A stretch of DNA of 63,177 bases, the filler included, from Pseudobdellovibrionaceae bacterium (lineage in GTDB: Bacteria > Bdellovibrionota > Bdellovibrionia > Bdellovibrionales > UBA1609), in the NCBI GenBank assembly GCA_030591685.1. It is 7 parts of 7 records of this genome, joined end to end, with 100 filler letters (N's around TTAATTAATTAA, not from the genome) between each part and the next. Parts side by side here need not be neighbours in the genome. Positions count along the whole stretch, not along the records: positions 19,961 to 33,123 come from JAUVAX010000057.1; 6 more parts are not named here. The stretch is one strand, 5' to 3'. Shown here piece after piece: positions 26,883-29,429 of this stretch (position 1 is the stretch's first letter; each line of letters starts with the position of its first letter). A program made the translations under genes and the position numbers. Below the pieces are notes generated by a model, which saw only the letters and a program-made list of their open reading frames with translations, was not told the DNA's origin and made no database searches.

Positions 26883-27626
26883 TTACTCCCCCTGTTTGAA
26901 TGTAATAATCTCTAAATTTATCCATTGCTGTAGGGCTTCTTGAAGGGATTTTGTAACTACTTCGGTGGAAAGACTCGAATCAATTTCGTCAATTGCTGAC
27001 TCTAAATCGGGATTGGCCTGAAGGCCGTTTAAAATTTTAAACTCCAAATCAGTCAGGCTCTCACAGTGAACCCTTCTGTCTTTTGTGGTCCACACCATAA
27101 TATTAGTGTTTTCTTTGGGGTGGCTTTCTTCGTGGGCCCATATTTTATGTAGGGGCCAGGGGCTTTTAAAAAGTTTTAATGATGTTGTGCAAATGGCCTG
27201 AGGGCCGTTTAAGGTACTTTTTTCTGTTGTCAGTGTGAAGTAGTCGTAAAAACTTTCAATCATAAGCCACTCAAGCGTTGCGACATCAACGAGTTCTTCA
27301 GAGGCATCTTTTGGTAAGTGCGTTTTTAAATACTGAGGCAGGTTGCGGCCAATCTCGTTAATATAATGAGTGTCTGGTGTATGCACGGTTAAATACTCTC
27401 TGATAAATCCAGAGAAGGCCTCTTTGCCATAAAACACACCTGTGACCACAAAGTCAGACTCAATACATTCGGTAGTTCCGACTTCATAACTTGACCGGTA
27501 AGATAAAAGTCTCTCTGTTCGAGAGATATTTTTTTGACTAATGACAAAATTTAAGGAATCCGGAGAGTCTGTTTGTCGGCTTATAAAGCTATAAAGTTGC
27601 TGTTGGAAGTCCCTTAAGTTTATCAC
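26883..27626 (-). CDS. DUF2063-like MNIO partner protein (HvfC/BufC-like)
   Basis: LRDFQQ...RL.SYR.SY...F....G...F...Y...P...I..IG..LP.YL...DVATLEW...P.HKIW pattern; overlaps the 3' end of DUF692; GTG 27626 is the probable start. Confidence 0.85.
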   Translation of the reverse strand: MINLRDFQQQLYSFISRQTDSPDSLNFVISQKNISRTERLLSYRSSYEVGTTECIESDFVVTGVFYGKEAFSGFIREYLTVHTPDTHYINEIGRNLPQYLKTHLPKDASEELVDVATLEWLMIESFYDYFTLTTEKSTLNGPQAICTTSLKLFKSPWPLHKIWAHEESHPKENTNIMVWTTKDRRVHCESLTDLEFKILNGLQANPDLESAIDEIDSSLSTEVVTKSLQEALQQWINLEIITFKQGE

Positions 27627-28461
27627 TTTGGATCCTTTCGACAATGTCTTTCGCTTTAAATAGTTCGGCTTCATACTTAGAAAGAGTGGGGATGTCTGAG
27701 TCCCACTCGACCATTATTGAGGTTTTATCAAGAAGCTTCATAGTAAAGGCGAGAAGGTCAAAGACTTCGTCTTTAACGGGGGCATCATGTGTGTCTATAA
27801 TGAGCCCTGAGTCTTTAACTTGATGGCCTGCGAGGTGAATTTGACCCACATTATCTAGAGGGATTCCTTTAATAAAATGCTCAGGGTTAAAATCGTGATT
27901 TTGTGAACTAACGTAAACGTTATTAACATCTAAAAGAAGGCCACAGTCTGTTTTTTTAATAATCTCGGTGATAAACTCCCACTCTTGCATTTCAGAGTGG
28001 TTAAAGCTCATGTAACTTGAGGTGTTTTCAATCATAAACCGTTGGCCTAAAAAATCTTGAATACGGTTGATGTTGCAGCTGACATGTTCAACGGCTTCTT
28101 TTGTGTAGGGCATTGGCAACAACCCATGAGTATTATGAGCATTAACTCCGGTCCAACAGAGGTGATCTGAAATCCATTCGGGCTGTATTATATTTATAAG
28201 GTTTTTTAAATTTTTTAAAAACTCTAGGTCTAAAGAGTCAACGCCGCCAATATTAGACGAAACACAGTGAAGAACAATGGGCTTAAAAGCACGGACTTCT
28301 AGAAGAGTTTCTAGCATTGGTCCGTGCCCACTTTGAGGGATACCCATATAATTTTCAGCTAAAGCCTCAAACCAATCCACACGGGACTTTTTGGCCAAAA
28401 CATCTTCATAATGCTCTGACCTTAAGCCAAGTCCGTATCCTAAATAGGGGTACTTACTCAT
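27589..28461 (-). CDS. DUF692 multinuclear non-heme iron oxidative enzyme (MNIO; MbnB/TglH/ChrH/HvfB/BufB family)
   Basis: GLGLR, WFEALAEN, LHCVS, WISDHLCW, LLP, IENTSSY, LLDVNNVYVS, IHLAGH, IDTH, VEWD motifs. Confidence 0.95.
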   Translation of the reverse strand: MSKYPYLGYGLGLRSEHYEDVLAKKSRVDWFEALAENYMGIPQSGHGPMLETLLEVRAFKPIVLHCVSSNIGGVDSLDLEFLKNLKNLINIIQPEWISDHLCWTGVNAHNTHGLLPMPYTKEAVEHVSCNINRIQDFLGQRFMIENTSSYMSFNHSEMQEWEFITEIIKKTDCGLLLDVNNVYVSSQNHDFNPEHFIKGIPLDNVGQIHLAGHQVKDSGLIIDTHDAPVKDEVFDLLAFTMKLLDKTSIMVEWDSDIPTLSKYEAELFKAKDIVERIQSDKLKGLPTATL

Positions 28462-28492
28462 TTATTGATCCTTTAAAGGATGGAACCTTTCT

Positions 28493-28807
28493 TTACTTGC
28501 TTTTTTTATCTCCACACGATCCATCGGCACATTTTGCTCCGGCTTTTTTACCCTTACCGTTTTTCATATGATTTTCGCCGCATTTATTCTTTGCTTTTTT
28601 ACCCTTACTGTTTTTCATGTGCTTGTCGCCACATTTACCATCGCAGTTTTTTTTGTCTTTATGTTTACATGTTTTCGCGTGATTTTCGCCACATGCTCCT
28701 TTGCCGTCTTTCATTGTCCCCTCGGCATTAGCGGTACTTAGCCCCAGTGTGAGGCCTGCGATAACTGAACTGAGTATCATTTTATTACGTAATAGTGTGT
28801 TTTTCAT
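28493..28807 (-). CDS. secreted Cys-rich RiPP precursor (HvfA/oxazolin- or bufferin-like) with CGxxH repeats
   Basis: AGGAG RBS; signal peptide ending ANA; core with 7 Cys: ACGENH, TCKH, NCDG, KCGDKHM, KCGENHM, KCADGSCG; immediately upstream of DUF692. Confidence 0.85.
   Translation of the reverse strand: MKNTLLRNKMILSSVIAGLTLGLSTANAEGTMKDGKGACGENHAKTCKHKDKKNCDGKCGDKHMKNSKGKKAKNKCGENHMKNGKGKKAGAKCADGSCGDKKSK
28535..28636 (-). repeat. 51-nt (17-aa) tandem duplication inside the precursor
   Basis: KCGDKHMKNSKGKKAKN / KCGENHMKNGKGKKAGA. Confidence 0.85.
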
Positions 28808-28879
28808 TTTATCTCCTATATATTATAGTTTATGTTATTTGCTCACTCTATTTTTGATTTTAATAGAGTAATAAAGATA

Positions 28880-28906
28880 TGTGCTGTTCGGCAAATAAAT
28901 CTTACA
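28880..28906 (-). promoter_or_regulatory. ECF-like promoter for the precursor-MNIO operon
   Basis: minus strand reads TGTAAG-N16-GCACA, identical in elements and spacing to the opposite copy. Confidence 0.55.
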
Positions 28907-28927
28907 AAAAAATATATTTACTTTTTT

Positions 28928-28954
28928 TGTAAGGTTCTAGACCTGACATGCACA
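28928..28954 (+). promoter_or_regulatory. ECF-like promoter for doxX
   Basis: TGTAAG-gttctagacctgacat-GCACA (N16), 28 nt before the doxX ATG. Confidence 0.55.
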
Positions 28955-28982
28955 GACGTTTAAGCCGACTAAAGGAGTAAAA

Positions 28983-29429
28983 ATGGATAAAGAAAGTATA
29001 AAGTTAAGAATAAATAGGTTTCATACACTACTAGCCCGCCTAGAGTGGTTACCGCCCCTTTTAGCCAGGGTTATGATAGGCTGGGTATTTTTTTGGGCCG
29101 GTTACGGTAAGCTAGGTAACCTTGAGCCGGTGATCGGGTACTTTAACTCTATTGGCATCCCATTTGCGAACATACAAGCCCCCATGGTTGCAGGCCTTGA
29201 GCTTTTGGGTGGATTGGCCCTTGTTTTAGGGTTTGCCACCAGGTACTTTTCAGCTGTTTTAATAGGTATTATGGCTGTCGCCCTAATGACAGCCCATAGC
29301 GCTGAAGTAAATAAGCCTGCTGATTTATTTAAAATATACGAATTTGTATACATTATAGTTATGGGGTACTTAGCCATTTACGGGGCCGGTAAGTTTTCGG
29401 TGGACCATCAAATGAAAAGCAAATGTTAA
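28983..29429 (+). CDS. DoxX family membrane protein (MNIO-cluster associated)
   Basis: LLARV.IGW.FF.AG.GKL...F..IGIP...ELLGG.ALVLGFATR...G.GKFSVD; AAAGGAG RBS. Confidence 0.92.
   Translation: MDKESIKLRINRFHTLLARLEWLPPLLARVMIGWVFFWAGYGKLGNLEPVIGYFNSIGIPFANIQAPMVAGLELLGGLALVLGFATRYFSAVLIGIMAVALMTAHSAEVNKPADLFKIYEFVYIIVMGYLAIYGAGKFSVDHQMKSKC

Follow-up and report, generated by a model that had tools for sequence, protein, structure and literature searches.

A gene cluster of the captophorin/bufferin kind lies at positions 26883-29429 of a 63,177-nucleotide stretch of DNA (the window), made of joined parts of the genome assembly GCA_030591685.1 of a Pseudobdellovibrionaceae bacterium. It is a genuine four-gene cluster, in which a precursor peptide, an MNIO (DUF692) maturase and a partner protein with DUF2063 and RRE domains are encoded on the minus strand, and a DoxX membrane protein is encoded divergently on the plus strand. 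All four open reading frames (ORFs) are found where an initial annotation had placed them; the 175-nt spacer between the two arms holds, in addition, a pair of motifs which that annotation had overlooked. The features are the following.

26883-27626, minus strand: PME1 partner (DUF2063 plus RRE-type NGO1945_C), ORF call from 27674; PF09836 46.3 against a cut-off of 27.2, PF22106 28.1 against 27.
27589-28461, minus strand: MNIO/DUF692 maturase, BufB type; PF05114 322.6 bits, BufB model NF050167 324.8 against a cut-off of 310.
28493-28807, minus strand: precursor, 104 amino acids; predicted Sec signal at residues 1-28, 76-residue Lys-rich core with 7 Cys, 51-nt DNA repeat.
28843-28872, minus strand: hairpin at the predicted 5' end of the precursor mRNA; 81-nt stretch folded, z = -3.5.
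28877-28906, minus strand: predicted promoter for an extracytoplasmic function (ECF) sigma factor ahead of precursor-MNIO-PME1, TGTAAG-N17-CACATAT; score 16.1, 1 of 300 shuffles.
28928-28957, plus strand: predicted ECF promoter ahead of doxX, TGTAAG-N17-CACAGAC; score 6.6, 17 of 300 shuffles, a weaker match.
28983-29429, plus strand: DoxX membrane protein; PF07681 73.1 against 23.6, 57-60% identity to the DoxX of three relatives' clusters.

A Sec-signal precursor followed by an MNIO, a DUF2063 partner and DoxX is the published core of both bufferin and oxazolin clusters (PMC12452194). More than 20,000 MNIO-PME1 clusters are known, and every characterised product bears a 5-thiooxazole according to PMC13097082, in which the structure of oxazolin is also revised to 5-thiooxazole. 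Since the gene set is published and so widespread, the class is not new. The resemblance to bufferin and oxazolin systems pointed out in the initial annotation is thus borne out, and its proposal that Cys residues are converted by thiooxazole-type chemistry is, by analogy with the characterised clusters, the likely outcome here. Indeed, the window shows the arrangement of captophorins, as MNIO-PME1 products are called: the MNIO is followed by a DUF2063 plus RRE partner, a Cys-rich precursor of less than 200 residues with a Sec signal directly precedes the MNIO, and the MNIO retains its predicted metal ligands as well as a catalytic Asp, assigned through the resemblance of its motif to that of FonB D249. 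A foreign composition is not supported, the GC content of the cluster (0.36-0.41) being close to that of the genome (0.40).

The maturase carries H65, D99, H100, E145, D178, N181, H209, D223, H225, E252 and D254, with S255 at the specificity site. Its motifs SDH, IEN, LDVNN, HLAGH, DTH and EWD align with those of the solved chains 3BWW, TglH and MbnB; by analogy with MbnB and TglH, they carry the predicted iron ligands. The metal-ligand motifs announced in the initial annotation are in place. The BufB model is passed as well by the MNIOs of three genomes of the order, G034, G046 and G251 (G numbers designate genomes of the order, G000 being that of the window, and L numbers their loci), and the HvfB model NF003818 is not passed by the window enzyme (240.1 against 360). 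Relaxed selection is not supported: the enzyme departs only once from near-invariant columns, within the range of 0-4 departures of 23 close homologues. No second MNIO was found in the window's genome. Two ORFs of 559 residues (L070:3173-4852) and 480 residues (L078:3989-5431), in G039 and G008, are probably MNIO-partner fusions.

The overlapping DUF2063-like partner of the initial annotation is also confirmed, with both its domains recognised. Translation probably starts at the GTG at 27626, behind an AAGGA sequence, giving a protein of 247 residues and a 38-nt overlap with the MNIO gene; partners of the relatives begin at the equivalent position. DoxX, on the opposite strand as claimed, narrowly misses the cut-off of the HvfX model NF050144 (76 against 80).

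The precursor corresponds to the secreted Cys-rich peptide that had been announced. Its signal peptide was judged by inspection and hydropathy: a basic stretch at the N-terminus is followed by a hydrophobic core, whose hydropathy over 11 residues reaches 1.98, and a cleavage motif A-N-A is visible. The core contains two 17-residue repeats with CG[DE][KN]HMK, each with one Cys and a His-Met pair, and then a C-terminal AKCADGSCG unit. Known precursor types were compared in turn. The 17-residue period of the Buf_EGKCG/oxazolin type is present, but each central repeat has a single Cys where that type has two motifs, and EGKCG does not occur in its exact form. No match to PF10048 (DUF2282), the domain of Buf1 precursors, is found in the peptide, a control precursor being matched, and no NrsF was found in the genome. 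By inspection, its 7 Cys, five of which are followed by Gly or Ala, do not follow the Buf2 pattern of six or twelve, mostly Cys-Lys. With the HvfA model NF050188, the window precursor gives no match at E<=0.01, those of G046 and G251 reach 24.7 and 27.5 bits against a cut-off of 95, and that of G034 gives none; an Atlas lookup returns an HvfA-named cluster at 0.87, which is a lead only. The idea that Met replaces a second Cys in the repeats was abandoned, its outcome depending on the chosen register. The hairpin at the predicted start of the precursor mRNA could stabilise the transcript; by inspection, it is not seen in the relatives.

The names given to proteins of same-order relatives place the host in Bdellovibrionales. 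When the 383 remaining genomes of the order are compared, three (G034, G046 and G251) have an MNIO that reaches E<=1e-98, at 59-61% identity. Precursor conservation, whose absence would have refuted the reading of the initial annotation, is seen in all three: each has a precursor with AKCADGSCG as its C-terminus, together with a divergent DoxX and the gene order of the window. The precursors of G046 and G251 have three two-Cys repeats resembling the AEGKCGEGKCG of HvfA (HvfA sequence: PMC11252979); one-Cys repeats containing Met and His, similar to those of the window, are seen in that of G034. In quick trees, the four enzymes group on a single branch (SH-aLRT 98-99), drawn apart from two enzymes of the EGKCG type. 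However, an approximately unbiased (AU) test does not reject joining them in a single clade (p = 0.13, with two EGKCG-type rows, one of them long), and a precursor swap or convergence, being unsupported, is therefore not claimed. In a metagenome scan, the matches listed comprised only generic MNIOs of 41-53% identity. The clusters of the three relatives have differing neighbours, and by inspection that of G046 lies among transposase-, resolvase- and AbiE-like ORFs (L040:5256-6934 and 12270-14550); the differing neighbours, together with the transposase and resolvase ORFs, suggest a mobile cassette or genomic island.

The spacer between precursor and doxX contains an inverted repeat with 15-nt arms, 93% complementary, which resolves into two outward-facing TGTAAG-N17-CAC sites. 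The back-to-back pair is kept in all three relatives, and the doxX-side GTAA stands 54 nt before the ATG, as against 54, 53 and 51 nt in these genomes. The precursor-side site is the best among 305 candidate non-coding sites of the genome, and the pair ranks first of 2924 back-to-back GTAA pairs when scored with a matrix trained only on sites in or beside sigma genes. Scores of the two window sites (18.7 and 13.2) fall inside the leave-one-out range of the relatives (8.3-23.5), and the CACA variant that they carry is found in 5 of the 48 relatives' sites. The geometry of the motif matches that of promoters of Neisseria sigmaE (GTMAGBWTT, 12-13 nt, CGTCTAAH; PMC2893595), of Caulobacter SigF (GTAACC-N16-CGAA; PMC3511200) and of S. 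meliloti RpoE7, which has TGTAAC sites before a DUF692 operon (PMC6180224). As a check on the approach, a G003 cluster with an NrsF-type anti-sigma was found to have back-to-back TGTAACC-N16-CGAA instead. The two spacer motifs are thus likely promoters for a sigma of the ECF293 type, as far as can be judged from sequence. A weaker match at G000:C22:7526 on the plus strand (12.6), 59 nt before a 470-residue ORF with a signal-like start, is possibly a third site and possibly due to chance.

The same inverted repeat might instead be read as the operator of a dimeric repressor or activator, to which its long complementary arms, and an arm spacing equal in G000 and G034, would be suited. We regard this as very improbable: the half-to-half distance varies widely across loci, some operons are preceded by one copy alone, as is also the case within the sigma gene, and each half has a second element fixed 17 nt downstream, like an ECF promoter.

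The assignment to an ECF sigma comes from relatives that possess one. The closest relative in the tree is G034, where doxX is followed, 42 nt further on, by the genes for sigma and anti-sigma, and G032 has the same doxX-sigma-anti-sigma order after 86 nt, at a contig end. In 13 sequences of this sigma, C140, C166 and C190 are invariant (sigma-4 region and C-terminal), and a small soluble anti-sigma ORF with HxxxCxxC stands behind the sigma in 13 of 14 cases; the best NCBIfam match is TIGR02943, at 101-110 bits for a cut-off of 162.2. ECF293 sigmas are described as having three sigma-4 Cys and a soluble zinc-finger anti-sigma at +1, with promoters that are not conserved between subgroups (PMC7826278), and the relatives' sigma, judged on its sequence, fits this description.

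Across the order, the motif and the sigma tend to occur together. With a matrix of 18 sites in or beside sigma genes, each genome's own being left out, the motif precedes the MNIO operon in 9 of 11 sigma-positive genomes as against 3 of 14 sigma-negative ones; this test covered 24 of the 28 MNIO-bearing genomes plus G251 (G007, G029, G032 and G050 were left out, and the match in G008 is marginal). A strict back-to-back pattern, which the window itself does not fit, is found in 11 of 384 genomes, 5 of which had helped to define the motif; the sigma occurs in 55 genomes, and 9 of the 11 belong to these. Reversing the pattern, as a control, gives 6 genomes, one with the sigma. Moreover, 12 of 16 copies of the sigma gene contain the motif, some 100 nt short of the stop codon and upstream of the anti-sigma gene, within codons for C-[KN]-I-L-x-V-x-x-T (L040, L049-L055, L058, L059, L172, L174). 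Synonymous codons are fixed there, with TGT in 16/16, AAG in 10/10 and ACT in 14/14 cases, versus 29/50, 76/212 and 45/126 elsewhere in the same genes. Sigma-dependent promoters within a sigma gene have a precedent in E. coli rpoE-rseA, and the codon-fixed, promoter-like site suggests feedback through the anti-sigma. In a metagenome control, 64 loci were examined (80 fetched, 16 with less than 600 nt upstream) and 2 had the motif in the 1500 nt upstream, a control weakened by most of these loci being GC-rich.

Genes behind the motif in the relatives encode CMD/AhpD-like (peroxidase-like) proteins, MsrB, glutaredoxin, ArsS, YceI and a thioredoxin-DsbD operon, as well as MNIO clusters with Buf1-, Buf2- and other precursor types. 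Sigmas of the group in Neisseria and Haemophilus control comparable thiol and metal(loid) stress regulons (PMC7907618), and the gene content of the relatives' regulon is likewise that of a thiol and metal(loid) stress set. Back-to-back motifs before divergent stress genes (ArsS plus a methyltransferase-like ORF, CMD-like, MsrB, glutaredoxin, DoxX, YHS and DUF547-like) were observed at L179, L181, L182, L183, L184, L187, L192 and L195-L198, and at L067, L068, L073 and L074 Buf2-type clusters stand behind the same motif, with YceI (and in some YHS) upstream and tandem precursors.

In the window's genome, neither factor was recovered. As the initial annotation had remarked, no sigma or anti-sigma gene adjoins the cluster: doxX is followed by 237 nt and then by a convergent maiA. 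Buf2 clusters are normally without an adjacent sigma (PMC12452194). Sigma profiles and a six-frame read-through revealed no sigma orthologue or fragment in G000. For the anti-sigma, a profile of our own replaced PF13490, which had missed the protein in genomes known to have it; nothing was found in G000 at E<=10, for a held-out control found at 1e-27. Other regulon genes of G000 lack an upstream site (MsrBA, ArsS and DUF547 genes) or are unmatched by tblastn. The absent sigma and anti-sigma, together with these siteless genes, favour loss: we lean slightly towards the pair having once stood behind doxX and been lost, so that the cassette is intact but orphaned.

Somewhat less probably, the pair falls in an assembly gap. 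The corresponding alternative, to which we give roughly one chance in three, keeps the same cluster and promoters and supposes that sigma and anti-sigma are encoded elsewhere in the organism, missing only from the assembly, and act in trans. In G251 the layout is identical, no sigma adjoins the cluster and two copies of the sigma gene lie on other contigs. In Caulobacter, SigF acts in trans on buf2 (PMC11626156). Both window sites score like those of the relatives; the assembly is split into 98 contigs, and six gap regions lie in the window. Against this, completeness is 100%, the read-through met no fragment of either gene, and the rest of the regulon is siteless or unmatched.

Only two ECF-sized sigmas were found in G000, an RpoE-like one on C10 and one on C73 beside CusCBA-like genes. 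The latter locus, G000:C73:144319-151647 (L201), comprises the ECF sigma, a Cys-bearing membrane protein with no Pfam match and an outer-membrane efflux protein, divergent from CusB-like (HMBD) and CusA-like genes; it has its own back-to-back GTCAC-N17-CGTA sites and is likely a sigma-controlled metal efflux system. That a resident ECF reads the window sites is improbable in our view. The fuller version of this idea, in which one of these two sigmas took over both promoters and thereby tied the cluster to copper efflux, is held to be just as improbable. Both window sites share GCACA, shifted from the common CACT, the C73 sites have the same 17-nt spacing, and no other sigma of this size is at hand. 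However, the C73 sites differ in both elements, a C10-type sigma is present in the siteless G010, G001 has a strong site and no close C73 orthologue, and CACA variants occur in sigma-positive genomes. Loss of the cognate pair thus remains the preferred account.

Taken as a whole, the locus quite probably directs the synthesis of a Sec-exported thiooxazole peptide predicted to bind copper, its two arms standing behind likely promoters of an ECF293-type sigma not found in the assembly. By analogy with characterised captophorins, the MNIO and its partner would act in the cytoplasm as a heterodimer that oxidises Cys residues of the core to 5-thiooxazole, with a change of -4 Da for each. FonBC modifies a Cys that is preceded by Ala or Lys and followed by Gly or Ala, and does not tolerate a charged residue in the following position (PMC13097082). 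Under these flanking rules, C39, C59, C76, C93 and C98 would be the likely targets, and C47 and C55, with a charged next residue, may stay free or form a disulfide, giving a shift of -20 or -22 Da on a core of about 8.0 kDa. The modified peptide would then be exported by Sec and would sequester Cu(I). His and Met are Cu(I) ligands, and the four core His and the His-Met pairs are likely to contribute. DoxX would be accessory; the Caulobacter DoxX is dispensable for modification and function (PMC11626156). In the relatives, a soluble zinc anti-sigma would free the sigma under thiol-reactive or oxidant stress, turning on both arms.

A different function, which we think doubtful, is that of a sacrificial thiol or oxidant sink (against hypochlorite, peroxide or arsenic-type thiol stress), copper binding being secondary. 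The company of CMD/AhpD-like, MsrB, glutaredoxin, ArsS and thioredoxin-DsbD genes behind the motif points this way, as do the oxidisable Met and Cys of the core and the separate ECF and motif of the CusCBA-like locus. Zinc anti-sigmas may also respond to thiol-reactive metals, so that the regulon does not separate the copper and sink functions. Sigmas of the group in Neisseria and Haemophilus drive msrAB and respond to peroxide or hypochlorite (PMC2893595, PMC7907618, PMC7826278); on the other side, the characterised captophorins bind Cu (PMC13097082, PMC11626156, PMC11252979).

Several observations weigh against the proposal of a copper-binding captophorin whose sigma has been lost. At the level of the genes, G113 of the MNIO is unique, the position being D in 93, E in 23 and G in 1 of 120 homologues (3 unread), and it might impair the enzyme. 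S15 and S255 replace the equivalents of FonB Arg16 and Phe250, for which reason the FonBC site rules may not transfer. The precursor passes no hidden Markov model, its link to oxazolin consisting of a short motif and of the relatives' sub-cut-off matches, and homologues were found neither by word search (0 of 2 candidates) nor by phmmer (0 matches over 1.84 billion representatives); the core being of low complexity explains these empty searches, since clear relatives exist. Chemistry, metal binding and expression are what we infer, whereas genes, enzyme and partner families, layout and motif conservation and the absence of sigma and anti-sigma from the assembly are observed. At the level of regulation, the first matrix gives the doxX-side site a weak score, and a sigma remnant behind doxX was sought and not found (best score 1.2 bits). 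A long-lost sigma would predict decayed promoters; because both sites score within the relatives' range, decay is not upheld. G001 and G051 have the motif without the sigma, which means that orphan sites or incomplete bins recur. Two of the 11 strict-pattern matches, those of G145 and G208, fall within ORFs and look fortuitous. Finally, p-values for the association are overstated: it was in the window that the motif was originally spotted, the training sites were selected by means of it, start codons were assigned manually and related genomes do not count as independent.

Around the cluster, a plus-strand ORF of 203 residues (26125-26736) has a likely signal peptide and two hydrophobic stretches; it was kept out of the cluster because it is convergent, receives no assignment from Pfam, NCBIfam or the Atlas and was not seen next to the clusters of the relatives. 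Next to doxX, at 29667-31507, are divergent maiA and fumarylacetoacetate-hydrolase genes of tyrosine catabolism, also not seen beside those clusters. Scans for sigma-70 promoters and terminators are at chance (7 versus 7.9 expected and 3 versus 3.4 expected), and folds of the precursor-MNIO spacer and of both 3' ends are without significance. The stretch is listed for a single DNA run, X1, possibly the source sample itself, one contig of which is identical to 27426-28333 with zero differences. No RNA run is listed for it, and it is not in two RNA runs of the same study, which has no bearing on expression.

The cluster itself is ordinary, and its regulatory element is of moderate interest. A broader proposal, which we put forward tentatively and believe somewhat less likely than its contrary, is that Bdellovibrionota possess an undescribed ECF293-type regulon. 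It would be defined by TGTAAK-N17-CACTYA, with a copy in the sigma gene's codons before the anti-sigma, and captophorins of several precursor types would be co-switched in it with peroxidases, MsrB and arsenic enzymes. The window cassette would have lost the switch and kept genes and promoters intact, its repeats having traded modifiable Cys for His-Met metal sites. If true, this is a natural test of whether captophorins respond to copper or to thiol oxidation, and of the importance of the heterocycle; the physiological role and regulation of EGKCG-like captophorins are stated as open in PMC13097082. No description of the motif, regulon or cluster in Bdellovibrionota was found in literature searches whose scope excluded most subscription papers and the supplementary data of PMC13097082 and PMC12452194; for this phylum, the motif supplies a defined promoter, a sigma and a co-regulated gene set. 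In addition, the window combines Lys-Cys-Gly substrates with a BufB-type enzyme that lacks the residues published for Lys-Cys specificity, which makes a test case for the proposed specificity code.

Among known systems, the captophorins fontiphorin (fonABC), oxazolin (hvfXABC) and gonophorin (ngo) share with the window the precursor-MNIO-PME1 order and DoxX, the Sec signal and a Lys-rich, low-complexity core (PMC13097082, PMC11252979, PMC12452194). The C-terminal AGAKCADGSCG parallels the AEGKCGEGKCG of HvfA, and a 17-residue period is common to both (PMC11252979). Unlike the Buf_EGKCG/oxazolin type, the window has no exact EGKCG, its central repeats carry one Cys and His-Met, the NF050188 and NF003818 cut-offs are missed and the MNIO is devoid of Arg16 and Phe250 equivalents. 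With Buf1 and Buf2 of Caulobacter vibrioides (bufABCD and bufABC; PMC11626156) it shares passage of NF050167 and a two-domain PME1 and, with buf2, the lack of an adjacent sigma. The -35 GTAA and 17-nt spacer resemble the GTAACC-N16-CGAA of SigF, whereas the -10 is CAC and not CGAA; in contrast to the Caulobacter bufferins, the precursor has neither DUF2282 nor the six-Cys Buf2 pattern, and NrsF was not found in the genome.

A plasmid of Moraxella sp. DOX410 (NZ_CP135142.1; L202, 980-4162) has doxX divergent from a KCG-repeat precursor and an MNIO, with back-to-back TGTAAT promoter-like sites, so that the divergent layout is not unique to the window. That cluster differs by its canonical two-Cys repeats, an MNIO with Arg-Arg and ERDF that is only about 40% identical, and Neisseria-type -10 elements; an IS4 transposase follows its MNIO in place of the partner. 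Finally, the sigmaE (ECF13, now ECF293) operon of Neisseria, NMB2140-2145 / NGO1948-1943, with the anti-sigma MseR, likewise ties doxX, precursor, MNIO and partner to a sigma (PMC2893595; PMC7826278). The window and its relatives depart from it by two divergent arms, a -10 CACTYA rather than CGTCTAA, a promoter-like site inside the sigma gene and a sigma not found in the window's assembly. In common are three C-terminal sigma Cys, a soluble HxxxCxxC anti-sigma, a -35 GTAAG(GTT), an A/T-rich upstream region and the presence of msr genes in the regulon.

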